A stretch of 33,592 bases of DNA, taken from NCBI GenBank assembly GCA_002781985.1, contig PFGP01000107.1:20011-53602 (forward strand), given 5' to 3'. The number at the start of each line of letters is the position of its first letter. The first letter of the stretch is position 1. Below, in pieces: positions 15,423 to 33,592 of the stretch. A program made the translations under genes and the position numbers. The DNA is from Candidatus Taenaricola geysiri. GTDB taxonomy: Bacteria > Omnitrophota > Gorgyraeia > Taenaricolales > Taenaricolaceae. Under the pieces are notes generated by a model. That model ran no database searches. It had not been told where the DNA came from and saw only the letters and a list, made by a program, of their open reading frames with translations.

Positions 15423-16613
15423 ATGACTAAAAAATTATGGGGTGGAAGGTTTACTAAAAACACAGACCCGTTTGTAGAGAAGTTTACAAGGAGCCTGCAT
15501 ACGGATATCGCGCTTTTTGAGTATGATGTAACAGCAAGCATAGCGCATGCGAAGATGCTTGGTAAATGCAAAGTCATACCAAAAAAAGACGCCCAAAAAA
15601 TAGTCAAAGGCCTTGTCAGCATATTAAACGAATTTGAAAAGGGCAAAACAAAAATAGATCAGTCAGCCGAGGATGTGCATACGCTTGTGCAGGCCTTACT
15701 TGAAAAGAAGATAGGCGCGCCTGCAAAAAAGCTTCACACAGCAAGATCCAGAAACGACCAGGTTTCAACAGACACAAGGATGTTTGCCAAGGATTATATA
15801 ATTGTTTTGATTGAAGTTGTAAAAGATTTACAGGCATCGCTTGACTCTGTTGCCAATAGGCACAAAACTGTATCAATGCCCGGTTATACGCATATGCAGC
15901 ATGCGCAGCCGGTTTTGTTTAAAAACTATACCGGAGCTTACAGGGAAATGTTTGAAAGGGATAAAGAAAGGCTTTCTGAAATATATAAAAGGATAGATAT
16001 TCTGCCCCTGGGAAGTTGCGCTTTAGCAGGCACAAGTTTGGCTATTGACAGAAAATTTGTTGCCAAAGAACTTGGGTTTTCAAAGGTTTCGCAGAATACA
16101 CTTGATGCTGTAAGCGACAGGGATTTTATAATAGAGATATTAAGCGCCGCAGCATTAACGGGTATGCACATGTCAAGGATATCAGAAGACCTTATTATCT
16201 GGTCCACATCAGAGTTTAATTTTGTGGATATCGACGAGGCATTCTGCACAGGCAGCTCCATTATGCCGCAGAAGAAAAATCCTGACGTACTTGAATTAAT
16301 CAGGGGTAACGCAGGCAGATTATACGCTAACCTTATGTCAATGCTGGTTACTATGAAGGGCCTGCCGCTTACATATAACAGGGATATGCAGCTTGATAAA
16401 GCGCCGCTTTTTGATTCATTAAACATAATTAAAGATCAGCTTGAAATTTTGTCAAAGCTTATCAGGACTATGAAGCTGAATAAGGCGGCCATAGACAGGC
16501 AATTGCAGGACCCGGGGTTGTATGCGACTTTAATGGCAGAAAGATTGGTAAAAAAAGGTGTATCGTTTAAGGATGCCCACAGAATAGTAGGAAAGAATTA
16601 TGCACGACTTTAA
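15423..16613 (+). CDS. argH: Argininosuccinate lyase, C-terminally shortened (396 aa)
   Basis: LWGGRF, HTARSRNDQ, PGYTHMQHAQP, GSSIMPQKKNPD, LPLTYNRDMQ; ends soon after FKDAHRIVG. Confidence 0.95.
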   Translation: MTKKLWGGRFTKNTDPFVEKFTRSLHTDIALFEYDVTASIAHAKMLGKCKVIPKKDAQKIVKGLVSILNEFEKGKTKIDQSAEDVHTLVQALLEKKIGAPAKKLHTARSRNDQVSTDTRMFAKDYIIVLIEVVKDLQASLDSVANRHKTVSMPGYTHMQHAQPVLFKNYTGAYREMFERDKERLSEIYKRIDILPLGSCALAGTSLAIDRKFVAKELGFSKVSQNTLDAVSDRDFIIEILSAAALTGMHMSRISEDLIIWSTSEFNFVDIDEAFCTGSSIMPQKKNPDVLELIRGNAGRLYANLMSMLVTMKGLPLTYNRDMQLDKAPLFDSLNIIKDQLEILSKLIRTMKLNKAAIDRQLQDPGLYATLMAERLVKKGVSFKDAHRIVGKNYARL

Positions 16614-17841
16614 ATTTAAAAATAAAAAGCTTTACTGTGAAAACATAGACGTTGAATATCTGGCAAGGCGTTTCGGCACCCCGCTTTATGTCTACAGCTA
16701 TAGCACCTTGATAAATCATTATCTTAAGTTAAAGGACGCGTTTAAGAGTATAAACCCGTTGATTTGTTATTCGGTAAAGGCCAATTCTAATATGGCGATA
16801 ATCGAATCGCTTATTAATAAGGGCGCAGGCCTTGATGTTGTCTCAGGCGGTGAGCTTTTCAGGGCGCTTAAGGCAGGATGTCCGGCTAATAGAATTGTTT
16901 ATGCGTCTGTCGGAAAGACCGATAACGAAATAAAAGAGGCGCTTAGCGCCGGAATCTTATTTTTCAATGTTGAATCTTTGCCTGAGCTTGAGAATATAAA
17001 CCGTATTGCCAGAAAACTTGATAAGGCCGCCAGGGTCGCGATAAGGATAAATCCTGACGTAGAGGCAAAGACGCATAAGTTTATTACAACAGGAAAGATA
17101 ACAAATAAGTTTGGCATAGATTTAAACAGCGCTTACAATATCCTTTTGATGCGTTCTAAGTTTTCCAATATAGATATATCCGGGCTGCATATTCATATAG
17201 GTTCACAGATAACCAACGGCGAGCCTTTTGTTGCCGCTATAACCAAGATTATAAAGTTTATAGGCCAGCTTAAGAAAAAAGGTATAGGGCTTGAATACCT
17301 TAATATAGGCGGCGGCCTGGGCATTGTGTATGATAAAGAAACGCCTCAGACAGCCATGAAGTTTGCCAAAAAGGCGCTGCCGCTTCTTAAGGCCACAGGT
17401 TTAAAGATTATTATGGAGCCGGGCAGGTTTATCGTCGGTAACGCAGGCATTATGGTTACAAAGGTTTTGTATGTCAAGCCAACGCCCAAGAAGAAGTTTA
17501 TAATAGTGGATGCAGGCATGAATGATCTGATACGCCCGGCATTATACGGGGCGTATCATCAAATTTTACCGCTTAGTTTGGTATCAGGTAGAAGAGAAAA
17601 GGTTGATGTAGTCGGGCCTATTTGTGAAAGCGGAGATTTTTTTGCCAAGGATAGAATTATGCCCAAGGTTTCAGAAGGAGATTATATAGCGGTAATGAGC
17701 GCAGGCGCCTATGGTTTTACCATGGCAAGTAATTATAACTCGCGGCGCAGGGCTTGCGAGATTCTTGTATCCGGAACCGATGTGTCTGTGATAAGAGACA
17801 GGGAGACTTACGGGGATTTGATTCGCAATGAAAAATATTAA
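16600..17841 (+). CDS. lysA: Diaminopimelate decarboxylase
   Basis: GTPLYVY, YSVKANS (PLP lysine), HIHIGSQI, EPGRFIVG, VGPICESGD, GAYG..MASNYN. Confidence 0.98.
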   Translation: MHDFKFKNKKLYCENIDVEYLARRFGTPLYVYSYSTLINHYLKLKDAFKSINPLICYSVKANSNMAIIESLINKGAGLDVVSGGELFRALKAGCPANRIVYASVGKTDNEIKEALSAGILFFNVESLPELENINRIARKLDKAARVAIRINPDVEAKTHKFITTGKITNKFGIDLNSAYNILLMRSKFSNIDISGLHIHIGSQITNGEPFVAAITKIIKFIGQLKKKGIGLEYLNIGGGLGIVYDKETPQTAMKFAKKALPLLKATGLKIIMEPGRFIVGNAGIMVTKVLYVKPTPKKKFIIVDAGMNDLIRPALYGAYHQILPLSLVSGRREKVDVVGPICESGDFFAKDRIMPKVSEGDYIAVMSAGAYGFTMASNYNSRRRACEILVSGTDVSVIRDRETYGDLIRNEKY

Positions 17842-18697
17842 GTTTACAAAGATGTCAGCTGCGGGCAATGACTTTGTTGTTGTAGAGGACAGCGATTTAT
17901 GCGGCCTTGCCGGCAAGATCTGCGACAGAAGATACGGCATTGGCGCAGACGGTATGTTGTTGCTTGAGAAAACCGCCAAGGCTGATATAAGGATGCGCAT
18001 ATTCAATCCCGACGGCAGCGAAGTTGATATGTGCGGTAACGGCGCGCGCTGCGCGGCAGTGTATTATACTTATATGCTATCAGCTATACGCTATCCGCTG
18101 ATCAAAATAGAAACCAAGGCCGGTATTTTAGAAGCAAAGATTGATGGCGACATGGTTAAGCTTAAAATGTCTGATCCGCACAGTATGAAATTGGATATTT
18201 CGCTCGTCATTGCGAGGAACGACGAGCGAAAGCGAGGAGTGACGAAGCAATCTCCTTGCTCAAAATCGGAGATTGCTTTGGGCACTTCGTGCCTTCGCAA
18301 TGACGTAATGGTCGTTAATTTTATTAATACAGGCGTGCCGCACGCTGTTATTTTCGTGGATGATCTGGAAAATATAGATGTTGATAAATTGGGCAGGGCA
18401 ATAAGAAACAGCGAGCGTTTTGCGCCAAAAGGCGCAAATGTCGATTTTGTCAAAGTGCTGGGTAAAGATAAAATCGCGGTCAGGACATACGAGCGCGGGG
18501 TTGAGGCAGAGACCTTGGCCTGCGGAACCGGATGCGTTGCAGCCGCGATACTCTCAGGCGCAGGCCGCAGTGTTGATGTAGTTACGCATGGAGGCGAAAT
18601 TTTAAAGGTGTGTTTCGAAAAAAAAGGCGCTAAGGTCAGTAATGTATGGCTTGAGGGAAGCGCGAAGATAGTATATAAAGGAAGGATGGAATTATGA
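17828..18697 (+). CDS. dapF: Diaminopimelate epimerase carrying repeat-derived in-frame segments
   Basis: GNDF, GIGADG, MCGNGARC, TGVPH, RTYERGVEAETLACGTG; both catalytic Cys residues are present. Confidence 0.97.
   Translation: MKNIKFTKMSAAGNDFVVVEDSDLCGLAGKICDRRYGIGADGMLLLEKTAKADIRMRIFNPDGSEVDMCGNGARCAAVYYTYMLSAIRYPLIKIETKAGILEAKIDGDMVKLKMSDPHSMKLDISLVIARNDERKRGVTKQSPCSKSEIALGTSCLRNDVMVVNFINTGVPHAVIFVDDLENIDVDKLGRAIRNSERFAPKGANVDFVKVLGKDKIAVRTYERGVEAETLACGTGCVAAAILSGAGRSVDVVTHGGEILKVCFEKKGAKVSNVWLEGSAKIVYKGRMEL
18076..18099 (-). repeat. Short heptamer array inside dapF
   Basis: GCTATCA GCTATAC GCTATCC GCT on the + strand; the reverse complement matches the heptamer family at 9691 and 33247. 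Confidence 0.6.
18205..18305. mobile_element. ~101-bp palindromic REP/RPE-like element lying in-frame inside dapF
   Basis: Terminal IR CGTCATTGCGA/TCGCAATGACG; inner stem AAGCAATCTCC (18245-18255)/GGAGATTGCTT (18268-18278); small hairpin GGCAC-TTC-GTGCC. Translates as VIARNDERKRGVTKQSPCSKSEIALGTSCLRND. Confidence 0.8.
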
Positions 18698-19578
18698 GTT
18701 TAAATCTAAAGGGTTCAATGGTAGCTTTGGTTACGCCTTTTAAGAATGATAAGGTTGATGAAGGAAAACTCAAGGAACTCGTAGAGTTTCATATAGAAAA
18801 TGGCACAAAAGCAGTGATTCCTTGCGGCACAACAGGCGAATCAGCGACTCTGTCGCTTGCAGAACACGACAGGGTTGTTGAAGTTGTTACCAAGATAGCC
18901 AAGAAGCGTATAACAGTCATCGCAGGCAGCGGTTCAAATAATACCAAAGAGGCGATACGGCTTACAAGGCACGCAAAGGATGTTGGAGCAGACGCAGCGC
19001 TTTTGATATCGCCTTATTACAACAGGCCCACGCAGCAAGGGCTGTATCTGCATTTTAAGGCAGTAGCAGATGCTGTTGATATACCTATTGTATTGTATAA
19101 TATTGCTTCGCGCACAGGCGTAAATATAGAGCCTGAGACCATAGCAGAACTGGCCAAGATAAAGAATATCGTTGGCGTAAAAGAGGCAAGCGGTAATCTG
19201 GATCAGATGTCGCGCATAGCGCAGCTGTGCGGTGATGAGTTTGCGCTTATTTCAGGCGATGACAGCCTGACCTTGCCTCTTATGGCAATAGGAGGCACAG
19301 GCGTAATATCTGTGGTTGCCAATATCGCGCCTAAGGATGTTGCAGACCTTGTTGATTCATTTTTAAAGGGCGACCTGCGCCATGCAAAGAAGATGCACTA
19401 TAAATTATTACCGTTGATTAAGGCGATGTTTATTGAAACAAATCCTATTCCGGTTAAAACCGCAATGGGTTTAATGGGAATGATAGAGCCAGGCCTTCGC
19501 CTTCCGATGTGCGATATGAAGCCGGAAAATCTGGCTAAGTTAAGAAAGGCGTTGAAAGACTACGGGTTATTGAAATGA
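18694..19578 (+). CDS. dapA: 4-hydroxy-tetrahydrodipicolinate synthase
   Basis: ALVTPF, CGTTGES, PYYNRP, LYNIASRTG, GVKEASG, SGDD, ETNPIPVK. Confidence 0.98.
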   Translation: MSLNLKGSMVALVTPFKNDKVDEGKLKELVEFHIENGTKAVIPCGTTGESATLSLAEHDRVVEVVTKIAKKRITVIAGSGSNNTKEAIRLTRHAKDVGADAALLISPYYNRPTQQGLYLHFKAVADAVDIPIVLYNIASRTGVNIEPETIAELAKIKNIVGVKEASGNLDQMSRIAQLCGDEFALISGDDSLTLPLMAIGGTGVISVVANIAPKDVADLVDSFLKGDLRHAKKMHYKLLPLIKAMFIETNPIPVKTAMGLMGMIEPGLRLPMCDMKPENLAKLRKALKDYGLLK

Positions 19579-24795: not shown

Positions 24796-25041
24796 ATGGC
24801 ACAGAAAGTTGCAAAGGTAGGCGTTAAAAGGCAGAAGGGATTTCTGTATTTTATCGACAAGAAAGGCGATGTTTCCTGCGCAAAGATGTCCAGAGGTGCA
24901 AAAAAAGGCGGTAGCCCTAAAAAGGTGGCAAAGGTTGGCGTTGAGAAAAAGTCAGGATATCTTTATTTCGTTGATAAGCAGGGTGATGTTTCCTGCGCAA
25001 AGATGGTCCGTGGCGGAAAGAAAAAGAAAAAAAGAAAATAA
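24796..25041 (+). CDS. Small, highly basic protein with two 39-aa repeats (function unknown)
   Basis: Strong SD AAGGAGGTGA (24779-24788) 7 nt before ATG 24796; two copies of KVAKVGV...G(F/Y)LYF(I/V)DK.GDVSCAKM.RG; poly-Lys tail. Confidence 0.85.
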   Translation: MAQKVAKVGVKRQKGFLYFIDKKGDVSCAKMSRGAKKGGSPKKVAKVGVEKKSGYLYFVDKQGDVSCAKMVRGGKKKKKRK

Positions 25042-25098: not shown

Positions 25099-27876
25099 AT
25101 GAGCGATTATATTACAATAAAAGGCGCGAAAGAACACAATTTAAAGAATCTGAATTTACAGATTCCGCGCAATAAGCTTGTTGTTATTACCGGATTAAGC
25201 GGTTCAGGTAAATCTTCCCTTGCCTTTGATACCATATATGCTGAAGGCCAGCGCAGATATGTCGAGAGCCTGTCCGCGTACGCGAGGCAATTTTTAGAAC
25301 AACTGCAAAAACCGGATGTAGAGCACATAGAAGGTATCTCACCGGCGGTTTCCATTGAGCAGCGCGCAGCAGGCTCAAACCCCCGTTCAACGGTAGCCAC
25401 TCAAACAGAGATATATGACTATCTTAGATTGTTATTTGCGCGCATAGGCATCCCGCATTGTCCGAGGTGCGGCAGAAAAATTCAGGGCCAGTCATCTGAG
25501 CAGATAGTCAGGCAAGTCCTGACGTTTCCGCAAGGAAAAGAAATCATAACATTAGCGCCTTTAGTCAGGGGAAGAAAAGGCGAGCACGTGCAATTACTGC
25601 AAGATGTAAAAAAACAGGGTTTTGTGCGTGTGCGCGTCGACGGTAAAATGATAGACCTTTCCGGCAAGATTATACTCGATAAAAAGATAAAACATGACAT
25701 AGAGATTGTTATAGACAGGCTGGTAATCAAACCCGGCATAAAAAAGCGCCTTACTGAATCCGTTGAAACAGCGCTTAAGGTAGGATCCGGCCTTGTGATG
25801 ATAAATGACAGAAATATCTTATTCAGTCAGCAGCATGCTTGCCCCGAATGCGGCATAAGCCTTGAAGAGATAGAGCCGCGCGTATTTTCATTTAACAGCC
25901 CTTATGGCGCATGTCCTAAATGTAGCGGCCTTGGCACCAGGGTTGAAATGGATCCTGATCTTGTTGTGCCGGATAGGGATAAATCTTTAAGGCAAGGCGC
26001 CATAGCGCCATGGCATAAGACAGGCAAAAACATATTTTTATATTACCGCGGCATGTTAAATGAATTGGCCAACAGGCGTAATATAAATATGGATACGCCT
26101 TTTAAAAAATTAGAGCAGCGCGTAAGGGATTTGATACTTTATGGTTCTGATGACGAGATCTGGGGTAAGAAATATGAAGGCGTTATACCGAATTTAGAGC
26201 GCAGGTTTGTCCAGACAGACAGTGATTACATGCGTAATGAAATAAATAAGTATATGTCAACCTCGCCATGCGTTTCCTGCCGCGGGGCGCGGTTAAAGCC
26301 TGAGTCGCTTGCAGTAAAGATAGCCGATAAAAATATCCATGAACTAACGCAATTTTCAATAACTAAGGTAAAAGAGTTTTTTGCGGGCCTTAAATTAACA
26401 GAGACAGAAAAAACAATAAGCCGCCATATATTAAAAGAGATAAATGCGCGGCTTACATTCATGAATGATGTTGGCCTTGGTTATCTTACGCTTGATCGCA
26501 TAAGTTCAACGCTTTCAGGCGGCGAGGCGCAAAGGATACGCCTGGCAACCCAGATAGGCGCGGCTTTAGTGGGAGTTTTATATATTTTAGATGAACCTTC
26601 AATAGGCCTACACCAGAAAGATAATACAAAACTTTTGGATACATTAAAGGCCTTAAGGGATTTGGGCAATACCTTAATTGTCGTCGAGCATGACGAAGCT
26701 ACAATCCGCTCGGCAGACTATATTATAGACTTAGGCCCTGGCGCAGGCAAACATGGCGGCCACGTTGTCGCGCAGGGCAGTTTAAAAAATATTTTAAAAT
26801 CAAAAAGATCTCTTACAGCCAGATATTTAAATGGAAAGCTGCAGATACCTGTGCCAAAGAAAAGAAGAGAGCTCATAAAAGATAAATCCCTGATTATAAA
26901 AGGCGCGGCAGAACATAACTTAAAAAACATTGATGTAAAAATACCTCTCGGGCTTTTTGTTTGCGTAACAGGCGTTTCAGGCTCAGGAAAATCTACGTTA
27001 GTTGATGAAATTTTATACAGGGCGCTTGCAAAAAAATTATACAAGTCAAAGATAAAACCCGGAAAACATAAAGAGATCCAGGGCATTGAGAATATAGACA
27101 AGGTTATAGTGATAGATCAGTCGCCTATAGGCCGCACCCCGCGCTCAAACCCGGCGACATACACAGGCGCCTATTCGCAGATACGCGATTTATTCGCGAA
27201 GCTGCCTGAATCCCGGATACGCGGTTTTAAGCCGGGCAGGTTCAGTTTTAATGTTAAGGGCGGCCGTTGCGAGGCATGCCAGGGCGACGGAGTGAAAAGA
27301 ATAGAGATGCATTTTTTGCCGGATGTGTATGTTACCTGCGAGGTTTGCGCGGGTAAACGTTTCAGCGGCCAGACGCTGGAGGTAAAATACAAAGGCAAGT
27401 CGATTTCAGACGTTTTGGGTATGACCGTCGAGGAAGCGCTGAATTTATTTGAAAATATACCGCAGATAAAAGAGAAGTTTAAAACTCTGAATGATGTTGG
27501 CCTTGGGTATATTCAGCTCGGCCAATCAGCAACGACTTTATCAGGCGGCGAGGCGCAGCGCATAAAGCTGTCAACGGAACTGTCAAAACGCCAGACAGGA
27601 AAGACGTTTTACATTTTAGATGAACCGACAACAGGCCTGCATTTTGCGGATATCGACAGGCTGCTTTCTGTCCTGCACCGCTTAGTTGACGCAGGCAATA
27701 CGGTTTTAGTTATAGAGCACAATTTAGATGTAATTAAAACAGCAGACTATATTATTGACCTTGGCCCAGAGGGCGGGGACAAGGGCGGCCATATTATTGC
27801 TGAAGGAACGCCTGAGGACATAATCAAATCAAAATTTTCCTACACCGGCCAGTATCTTTTCAGGCATATTTCATAG
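25099..27876 (+). CDS. uvrA: Excinuclease ABC subunit A
   Basis: [23 protein letters not shown], two LSGGEAQRI signatures, GVSGSGKST and zinc-binding CxxC pairs. Confidence 0.99.
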
Positions 27877-32909: not shown

Positions 32910-32932
32910 AAACAATATAGAGTTTGCCAGGG

Positions 32933-33250
32933 ATGAAAAAATATATAGTTGTGTTTATAACCGCTTCCTGCCTTAAAGAGGCCAGGAAGATAGCGGATGC
33001 CTTGTTATCAAAAAGGCTTGTTGCGTGCGTAAATATTATAAAAGGCGTAGATTCTTTTTTTACCTGGAAGCGTAAAAAAGAACGCGCCAGAGAAATATTG
33101 TTAATAGCAAAAACAGAATTTTCAAAATTTGGTGAAGTTGAAAAACTCGTTAAAAGAAATCATTCCTACGAAACCCCCGAAATAATAGCAATCCCGATAG
33201 TAGCCGGCAGCAAGCAATATCTAAAATGGATAGAAGACTCAGTCAAGTAA
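32933..33250 (+). CDS. cutA: Divalent-cation tolerance protein CutA
   Basis: LVACVNI, SFFTW, LLIAKT, HSYETPEII, YLKWI; start at ATG 32933 (TTG 32924 is an alternative). Confidence 0.95.
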   Translation: MKKYIVVFITASCLKEARKIADALLSKRLVACVNIIKGVDSFFTWKRKKERAREILLIAKTEFSKFGEVEKLVKRNHSYETPEIIAIPIVAGSKQYLKWIEDSVK

Positions 33251-33592
33251 GCGTAAAGCGTATAGCGAAAAGCGCAAAGTTTAAGCGCAAAGTTAAAAAC
33301 GTTTTAAGTTTTAAATTTCAGTTTTGCGTTTTTCGCTTTGCATTTTGCGCTCTCTTTATATTATTTTTTATATCAGGTTGCGCCACGGTTTACAACTCTG
33401 CCACAGGCAGGCAGGAATACAGGTTTATAACTACTTCTGAAGAAGTTAAAATAGGCTCGGATATTGCCAGGCAGATAGAGGCAAGGTTTAAGGTTGTTAA
33501 TGACCCTATAAGACAGGGGCGTTTAAATTATATAGGCCAGCGTTTGTCAGTTGTCTGTGACCGCCAGGATTTGATTCATACATTTAAGATTG
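33226..33592 (+). CDS. Probable M48-family metalloprotease lipoprotein, partial (runs off the window)
   Basis: Open frame from ATG 33226 to the window end: ...LFFISGCATVYNSATGRQEYRFITTSEEVKIG...YIGQRL...DRQDL..TFKI, with a lipobox and an N-terminal pattern typical of M48 lipoproteins. HEXXH lies outside the window. Confidence 0.7.
   Translation, partial: MDRRLSQVSVKRIAKSAKFKRKVKNVLSFKFQFCVFRFAFCALFILFFISGCATVYNSATGRQEYRFITTSEEVKIGSDIARQIEARFKVVNDPIRQGRLNYIGQRLSVVCDRQDLIHTFKI
33247..33352. repeat. Quasi-palindromic heptamer-repeat element
   Basis: Left arm GTAAGCG TAAAGCG TATAGCG AAAAGCG CAAAGTT TAAGCG CAAAGTT; centre AAAAC|GTTTT (33296-33305); right arm TTTTGCG TTTTTCG CTTTGCA TTTTGCG, the reverse-complement type. 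Confidence 0.8.

Follow-up and report, generated by a model that had tools for sequence, protein, structure and literature searches.

An in-frame CGTC-tagged hairpin repeat in the dapF gene of Candidatus Taenaricola geysiri, with copies flanking a small GIY-YIG nuclease gene

A palindromic repeat pair within the dapF reading frame

We analysed a 33,592-nucleotide (nt) stretch of DNA from the omnitrophote Candidatus Taenaricola geysiri (hereafter, the window), in which a 101-nt palindrome lies inside dapF, the gene for diaminopimelate epimerase (DapF), between lysA and dapA (Table 1). An earlier, sequence-only reading had described a 101-bp element with perfect 11-bp terminal inverted repeats that leaves the frame unbroken, and both the sequence and the open reading frame (ORF; 17828..18697) agree with that description. 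More specifically, the element begins with CGTCATTGCGA at 18205-18215 and ends with the exact reverse complement, TCGCAATGACG, at 18295-18305; bases 18206-18304 (99 nt, 33 codons) encode DapF residues V127-D159, VIARNDERKRGVTKQSPCSKSEIALGTSCLRND, which are followed by VMVVNFINTGVPH, and the element contains no stop codon in the dapF frame. Two cysteines, C144 and C155, are encoded by the insert. Folded as RNA, 121 nt around the element reached -54 kcal/mol (z -5.28), and folded as DNA the 101-nt element itself reached -29.7 kcal/mol (z -6.17); in either case none of 200 shuffles was as stable.

Seen from its genomic copies, the palindrome is a head-out (HH) pair of two inverted hairpin units of ~40 nt, each laid out as CGTCATTGCGAG, a variable GC hairpin, and CGAAGCAATCTCC. 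The unit consensus reads (C/T)GTC-ATTGC-GAG-(variable GC-rich hairpin)-CGAA-GCAAT-CTCC, and well-preserved units fold as single strands in which the CGTC head and the CTCC tail stay unpaired and a 5-bp outer stem (ATTGC/GCAAT) leads, through a purine-rich internal loop (GAG/CGAA), to an inner GC hairpin that is hypervariable. The right unit of the dapF copy retains an intact inner hairpin (GGCAC/GTGCC) and is near-identical to the right units of two other copies, on contigs C21 and C86 of this genome (G000). A repeat search of the 33.6-kb window found no second copy of the element, and an Rfam scan of six repeat loci (E <= 1) returned only two chance matches, i.e., mir-787 (26.2 of the 57 bits of its gathering score) and ZNRD1-AS1_3 (21.4 of 60).

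Comparison with orthologues indicates that the site is ordinarily occupied by a short turn. Such a turn was present in 28 of 29 DapF orthologues, which were drawn from 40 genomes of the same class and included one of the same order as the closest relative, and the 29th (from genome G037) carries an unrelated 17-residue insert. A second set came from 80 loci, most of them labelled Candidatus Omnitrophota, in which 64 DapF ORFs were identified upstream of dapA; across the aligned stretch all 64 have 35-37 residues versus 64 in the DapF studied here, although these ORFs and the 29 orthologues may share genomes. The net gain relative to orthologues is 28 residues and not 33; as 33 residues are encoded, the element replaces ~5 turn residues, and the terminal RND of the insert aligns with the usual N-x-R turn. 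Thus, the earlier statement that about 33 residues with two extra cysteines occupy a short loop of DapF was correct as to residues encoded, cysteines and position, and needs amending as to the length gained. As a separate observation, the insert in the G037 enzyme (SLGFAERRAPRGEEEI; locus L035, G037:C4) lies at the same beta-hairpin turn, and its DNA, in which no clear unit is recognisable, holds a small hairpin and GGAGATTG.

The host gene appears intact. The genome has no other dapF match, and the product of this gene keeps the alignment-invariant residues, including Cys69 and Cys232, which we take to be the two catalytic cysteines of the enzyme. An AlphaFold2 model of this DapF (30 sequences; mean pLDDT 89.1, pTM 0.86) places residues 131-160, mostly coil and with pLDDT values of 53-56, between strands 118-127 and 160-167. 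Since the length of the insert is a multiple of three and stops are absent, it would be translated together with the rest of the protein.

Because metagenome assemblies are often broken or made chimeric by repeats, and because several nuclease genes of the kind described below lie at contig ends, we considered whether the insert could be a mis-assembled repeat or dapF a pseudogene. Gene-spanning contigs from four separately assembled aquifer and groundwater runs (records of 1869, 12572, 10705 and 795 nt; this DNA may derive from three of these runs, and the fourth carries no such flag) all carry the insert with 0 or 1 difference, and the sole dapF of the genome is an intact ORF with its invariant residues. 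An artefact is therefore so improbable as to be nearly negligible. No joint across the element was found in the contigs of the four runs, in which rare empty-site alleles may nevertheless exist, because contigs drop rare variants. Further short contigs in the same runs match parts of units only, indicating that the repeat is common in those communities. The locus itself occurs in at least 20 aquifer and groundwater runs, with no RNA run listed among those that contain it; 19 of them carry a flag as potential sources of this DNA, and the runs may stem from one campaign.

Table 1. Positions of the dapF element, its parts and neighbours (window coordinates), and of further repeat loci and the nuclease gene in genome G000
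Feature	Location	Strand	Remarks
Complete element, HH dimer of two CGTC-tagged hairpin units	18205..18305	.	Sequence, frame, folds
Left unit	18205..18255	+	Head CGTC, ATTGC, GAG, degenerate inner segment, CGAA, GCAAT, tail CTCC
Spacer, 12 nt	18256..18267	.	TTGCTCAAAATC; between both tails; loop of the long hairpin
Right unit	18268..18305	-	Minus-strand reading CGTCATTGCGAAGGCACGAAGTGCCCAAAGCAATCTCC
dapF, diaminopimelate epimerase, 289 aa	17828..18697	+	TIGR00652, E 1.4e-68; PF01678
lysA, diaminopimelate decarboxylase	16600..17841	+	Stop overlaps dapF start
dapA, 4-hydroxy-tetrahydrodipicolinate synthase	18694..19578	+	Start overlaps dapF stop
GIY-YIG nuclease gene, 96 aa	G000:C3:625-912	-	PF01541, residues 6-79, E 1e-16; single domain
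Unit beside nuclease gene	G000:C3:577-620	+	Margin 4 nt
Unit beside nuclease gene	G000:C3:925-968	-	Margin 12 nt
Unit in coaX, type III pantothenate kinase	C1		13 aa, in frame
Unit in trpE, anthranilate synthase component I	C18		17 aa, in frame
Short single unit at bioD-bioA junction	G000:C152:4053-4088		12 aa, in frame

Copies of the repeat in the genome and in other coding frames

In the genome (1.27 Mb in 152 contigs, 96.6% complete), 13 loci carry a total of 19 hairpin units. Five loci are head-out dimers (on C4, C21, C86, C114 and C108, the last being the dapF copy), one is a pair bracketing a gene on C3, and seven are singles. A loose two-anchor search gave 47 matches versus 21 in the reversed genome; the 19 were accepted for their near-exact anchors, head and tail, and the other 28 resemble the control noise. 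The exact unit pattern matched 12 times in the genome and the full-palindrome pattern retrieved four dimers, both with 0 matches in the reversed control. Heads read CGTC in 15 of the 19 units, TGTC in three and CGCC in one, and are unpaired in the folds. In all five dimers and in the gene-flanking pair the tags point outwards and the partner units differ; units are also modular, the same right unit being joined to different left units at C21, C86 and C108. No duplicated target was common to the flanks of the 19 units.

A second unit type with the same plan and a covarying outer stem, i.e., TGTCATCCTGAG or TGTCATTCTGAG, a hairpin, and CGAAGGATCT or CGAAGAATCT, was noted at G000:C1:24010-24075, C14:10255, C93:7410 and on C88, one dimer of it lying just upstream of coaX.

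On the evidence of ORF maps, translations, family searches and alignments, four loci lie in frame and free of stops within recognisable genes, namely, dapF, coaX, trpE and the bioD-bioA junction. These are variable or surface positions: a beta-hairpin turn in DapF, hypervariable loops in the coaX and trpE products (where the unit-coded residues fill the loop and orthologue segments are of similar length), and the junction between two enzymes. At that junction, bioD (TIGR00347, residues 12-164) and bioA (TIGR00508, from residue 219; the contig ends inside bioA) share one open frame, so that the repeat looks like a fusion linker. A fifth locus, the C114 dimer, falls at the 5' end of a lipoprotein-like ORF without a family match, and its placement is ambiguous, as the protein may start upstream of the element or at an ATG in the element's head. 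The other eight loci are outside real-looking ORFs, as judged by ORF length and translation only.

Two side observations bear on these coding copies. First, an ATG within the unit head (TCGCAATGACG) is in frame with a downstream ORF at three loci (G000:C3:577-582, C114:5395-5405 and C152:4078-4088), giving peptides that begin MTDG..., MTISAFIISGC... and MTDYAAM..., so the repeat may donate start codons. Second, in another genome of the class (locus L300, G013:C38), a full unit dimer, GTCATTGCGAG...CTCGCAATGACG, lies inside trpE, in the same variable loop that holds a single unit in the genome studied here, with ~25 residues missing there; this looks like an independent insertion at the same tolerant site.

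The in-frame copies bear on the fate of the insert. One alternative is that the 33 residues are removed before the protein is made, by intron-like or programmed DNA excision, to give a mature DapF without them. The terminal inverted repeats and the strong hairpin are all that speaks for this. Removal would require neither a kept frame nor the absence of stops, and both are found in four independent intragenic copies; in addition, without the 99 nt the beta-hairpin would be ~5 residues shorter than in every orthologue, and no intron or ribozyme family was matched. Both the frame-keeping, stop-free state of the copies and the five-residue deficit that excision would leave argue for translation, and we consider removal highly improbable. 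A second alternative is that the insert is an adaptation of DapF, e.g., a new interaction surface or a redox loop formed through its two cysteines, which are additional to those of the enzyme; its presence in contigs of all four metagenomes would suit such a role. Against this, the insert is a plain translation of the repeat consensus, its VIAR..TKQS and ..LRND segments also occurring in other copies, it is predicted to be disordered, and it is absent from the orthologues, so that an adaptive loop seems very unlikely. Of the three fates raised in the sequence-only reading (a tolerated peptide, an mRNA structure, or removal at the RNA level), we favour the first, as yet unproven, in which the peptide would be a passenger that DapF tolerates.

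A GIY-YIG nuclease linked to the repeat, and relations to known classes

The only gene bracketed by units in this genome encodes a 96-residue, single-domain GIY-YIG nuclease. In an alignment of 25 rows, Y9, Y20 and G22 are invariant, and R30, E67 and N86 nearly so. No further close copy of this protein is encoded in the genome: two other small GIY-YIG genes (on C93 and C54) match the profile over positions 3-81 only, and no units were seen on reading their 260-nt flanks. A sequence search of the PDB with the nuclease retrieved only the UvrC N-terminal domain (1yd6, E 2.5e-4).

To place this arrangement more widely, one genome per species was scanned, which gave 65 loci with nuclease homologues (32-71% identity), in records labelled Omnitrophota, Ignavibacteriota, Cyanobacteria, Atribacterota, Chloroflexota, Planctomycetota, Patescibacteria, WOR-3, Desulfobacterota, Bacteroidota, Rickettsiaceae and others. 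A unit lay within 150 nt of the homologue at 41 of the 65 loci, on both sides at 25, and head-out at 18. Unit density was 5.07/kb near the gene (96 units in 18,944 nt) and 0.23/kb farther off (36 in 156,057 nt), and the reversed-sequence control yielded one match near the gene and none farther away. The association of nuclease and repeat thus recurs across phyla. The units themselves are conserved as structures: among 560 outer-stem pair cells from 112 distinct units, 526 were unchanged, 18 carried compensatory double changes and none a non-complementary double change, while one-sided changes left six cells still pairing and 10 broken. The inner segment is hypervariable (the 89 distinct units of <=50 nt contain 87 different inner hairpins; mean z -1.67 versus shuffles), and only 60% of inner segments beat their own shuffle mean in stability.

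The terminal inverted repeats, a size of ~100 bp and the presence of several copies would also be expected of a classical miniature inverted-repeat transposable element, i.e., an insertion sequence reduced by deletion and mobilised by a DDE or HUH transposase instead of a GIY-YIG protein. Such an origin is hard to reconcile with the lack of a common target duplication in the flanks of the 19 units, with the occurrence of units singly and in modular combination (as on C21, C86 and C108), and with the fact that the one unit-bracketed gene is of the GIY-YIG type, in an arrangement repeated at 41 of 65 loci across phyla. We give it only a very small probability.

Two published classes resemble the repeat closely. 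Di Nocera et al. (2013, BMC Genomics 14:522, PMC3733652) describe repetitive extragenic palindromic (REP) sequences with a terminal CGTC tag (variants TGTC and CCTC), grouped in families CGTC-1 to CGTC-4, of which CGTC-1 is the dRS3 of Neisseria. Their stems are continuous, 8-9 bp long and begin with A-T pairs, their loops are 4-5 nt, and they bear short unpaired CCA tails; HH dimers with the tags outside predominate, heterodimers occur, and single units as well as dimers lie within ORFs, where they encode 20-30 residues. The authors found no dedicated enzyme for them. The repeat described here shares with CGTC REPs the terminal CGTC/TGTC tag, the A-T pairs that open the stem, HH dimers, heterodimers and copies within ORFs. 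It differs in that (i) its units, of 30-62 nt, combine a 5-bp stem with an internal loop and a variable hairpin instead of one continuous stem; and (ii) its host belongs to the Omnitrophota, a phylum outside their sampling. The tail gives an ambiguous resemblance, being unpaired in both but reading CTCC(TTG) here against a CCA consensus there.

The second class is that of the Ssn nucleases. According to Chenal et al. (2025, Nat Commun 16:2388, PMC11893778), the NTS of Neisseria (CGTCATTCCCGCGMAVGCGGGAATCYRG) and the Ssn-related motif (SRM) repeats flank genes for single-domain GIY-YIG proteins of ~94 residues (CDD cd10448); Ssn cuts single-stranded DNA beside the hairpin in a strand-specific manner and leaves double-stranded DNA and RNA uncut, and the repeat-gene-repeat layout is likened, as a hypothesis, to insertion sequences and to REP/RAYT systems. 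Here, too, a single-domain GIY-YIG protein (96 versus ~94 residues) is encoded between inverted, oriented hairpins, and the repeats start with CGTCAT, have a tail that fits RNCYNB, are scattered genome-wide and are associated with the nuclease across phyla. The NTS of N. meningitidis 8013 differ from them in location, 2% of the NTS being inside genes compared with 4-5 of the 13 loci here. The probable tie of the present nuclease to Ssn is drawn from the SRM and NTS flanks of its homologues. Those flanks are as follows: one homologue (L211; 46% identity, E 9e-29) is separated by 11 nt from an exact match to the Neisseria NTS consensus, and is one of the nuclease homologues present at two of 120 loci with the exact NTS; a Rickettsiaceae homologue (L108; 52% identity) has matches to the published SRM motif on both flanks; Sphingopyxis witflariensis has nine nuclease matches (best E 2.9e-23), with SRM-motif matches within ~120 nt at four of eight loci; and further homologues (L091, L104, L105 and L107) stand beside other CGTCAY-headed hairpins.

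On these sequence grounds we file the element as a probable member of the CGTC-REP/SRM class whose stem architecture falls outside the current motif. The kind of element, including in-frame dimers, is already in print; new are the phylum of the host, the high coding fraction (4-5 of 13 loci), side effects such as the bioD-bioA fusion, and a conserved subtype that the published motif fails to catch, that is, a new host and sequence subtype and not a new kind. Among the papers listed by a full-text search with three 10-mers of the unit, whose matches were primers or otherwise unrelated, none prints this subtype, although the 29 curated SRM sequences of Chenal et al. may contain it.

Related elements have been recorded in Rickettsia. 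The sequence-only reading had proposed that a family like the Rickettsia palindromic elements (RPEs) inserts in frame into proteins of this unrelated lineage, and had suggested searching for a nuclease gene flanked by copies. The 19 units at 13 loci, with four in frame and one ambiguous, and the gene flanked by units at G000:C3:577-968 accord with that proposal, as does the finding that other genomic copies exist while orthologues lack the segment. The likeness is apt in that both are ~100-bp palindromes that sit in frame within housekeeping genes, in genomes of small size, and are read through as additional loops. What changes is its rank: the repeat falls in an already known class, and in Di Nocera et al. 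RPE-6 of R. conorii equals CGTC-1 and RPE-4 equals CGTC-4 (RPE-1 being a longer, distinct element), so that on their account the resemblance goes beyond analogy. REP/REPIN-RAYT systems (PMC3337134) are similar in plan, with hairpins flanking the gene of a small enzyme specific for single-stranded DNA and with gene-less inverted doublets dispersed in the genome; they differ in tag and enzyme (GTAG and an HUH tyrosine transposase, versus CGTC and a GIY-YIG nuclease here). The mobility of REPINs has population-genetic support, and that of SRM repeats none so far.

A role at the RNA level also deserves consideration, in which the hairpin within a lysA-dapF-dapA transcript would pause ribosomes, set mRNA stability or provide an RNase site, the peptide being a by-product. 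The predicted RNA fold is very stable, the overlapping genes suggest a single transcript, and Di Nocera et al. argue for the transcription of many REPs and for a possible function as RNA. On the other hand, the other in-frame copies are in unrelated genes (coaX, trpE and bioD-bioA) without a common operon position, the oriented heads and tails and the head-out pairs around a DNase gene fit a partner acting on DNA, Ssn was inactive on RNA in the work of Chenal et al., and no Rfam family was matched. We regard an mRNA-level role as unlikely.

Proposed origin of the insert and its wider bearing

The explanation that we prefer, at a probability of roughly three in four, is that the nuclease recognises the hairpin, that gene-less dimers of the repeat behave like REPINs, and that one of these landed in a turn of DapF, where it is translated as a disordered loop. 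By homology with Ssn, the 96-residue GIY-YIG nuclease would bind single-stranded DNA at the oriented hairpin and cleave it immediately upstream of the head. Head-out dimers without the gene could then spread in the manner of REPINs, presumably driven by the nuclease. One such dimer would have entered the turn of a surface beta-hairpin in DapF, as the orthologues suggest, and would now be translated as a disordered loop of 33 residues that the enzyme appears to tolerate. What is observed in this account comprises the anatomy, the family of copies, their in-frame positions, the nuclease-repeat association and the empty orthologue sites; nuclease activity, spread, translation and tolerance are inferred.

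Several observations weigh against this explanation. The first group comes from a survey of 121 genomes of the class, this one included, which in part also supports the link between repeat and nuclease. The exact unit pattern occurred in 46 of them (up to 56 copies per genome), with the control pattern in none, and a close nuclease homologue (full-length profile match, E <= 1e-30, a cut-off picked after the bimodal scores had been seen) in 27. Both were present in 22 genomes, the repeat only in 24, the nuclease only in five and neither in 70, in a sample in which related genomes are not independent. More than half of the unit-bearing genomes (24/46) thus have no close nuclease homologue, and one genome, 99% complete, carries 55 units with no nuclease match at E <= 1e-10. 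Several nuclease genes lie a few hundred bases from contig ends, so some of these absences may be assembly breaks; overall, the repeat-nuclease association across the class is clear but incomplete.

The second group concerns the link to Ssn and SRM. The published SRM search sequence, HGTCWYN(0-2)YYVSBRHN(0-5)WNVSBRGN(0-2)RNCYNB, matched 0 of the 19 units, and in the whole genome it matched one site versus three in the reversed control. The motif misses the units because they have a 5-bp stem with an internal loop and a variable hairpin instead of a continuous stem of 8-9 bp; by eye, their head (CGTCAT) fits HGTCWY and their tail (ATCTCC) fits RNCYNB. Neither the nuclease protein nor its 25-row profile found a match in the NTS-bearing genomes of N. 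lactamica NS19 and N. mucosa, which may reflect strains without ssnA or a family too distant to be detected. In Chenal et al., moreover, SRM mobility is raised as a hypothesis only and never shown.

The third group concerns the dapF copy itself. Its left unit, degenerate in the inner part, no longer folds by itself (z +0.70), so this copy may no longer be a substrate of the nuclease. A same-species empty-site allele of dapF was not found, and as the nearest genomes compared belong to another family, the insertion event is reconstructed across large distances. Translation, most likely as a disordered surface loop, is predicted from the gene sequence; among units generally, open frames are only modestly in excess (3.9 of 6 per unit versus 3.0 in shuffles), and this weak depletion of stops is not counted as evidence.

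The case is clean and well controlled, in that a nuclease-linked hairpin repeat appears to be read as protein within an essential enzyme of an uncultured phylum, and coding copies make up about one third of the repeat loci in this small genome. The published SRM motif under-counts the family, since it misses altogether a subtype whose conservation extends from Omnitrophota to Chloroflexota, Cyanobacteria and Bacteroidota. Fusions, and perhaps new starts, can arise from the ATG of the repeat and its largely stop-free frames. In annotation, repeats of this sort account for many unusual loops and short hypothetical ORFs (with peptides such as LLAMT and PRNDG) in metagenome-assembled genomes, and the population sampled here may serve as a natural system for how SRM repeats spread. 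A bolder proposal, which we put forward tentatively and think rather doubtful, is that the bipartite ATTGCGAG...CGAAGCAAT hairpin represents a distinct SRM lineage extending over many phyla and forms, with its GIY-YIG nuclease, a REPIN-like element that moves actively and remodels proteins in streamlined genomes through loops, the bioD-bioA fusion and starts at the head ATG.

Other repeats in the window were noted in passing. Direct repeats 102 nt long and 74% identical, separated by 117 nt, lie at 24805-25023, and several repeat pairs ~1026-1035 nt apart at 25117-27641 look like an internal duplication in a large gene. At 33240-33360, downstream of the ORF 32924..33250, an AT-rich imperfect palindrome has 61-nt arms that are 70% complementary and contains AAAGCG-type repeats; partial copies of it at six other genome sites (E 1.7e-9 to 2.4e-4) mark a different repeat family.

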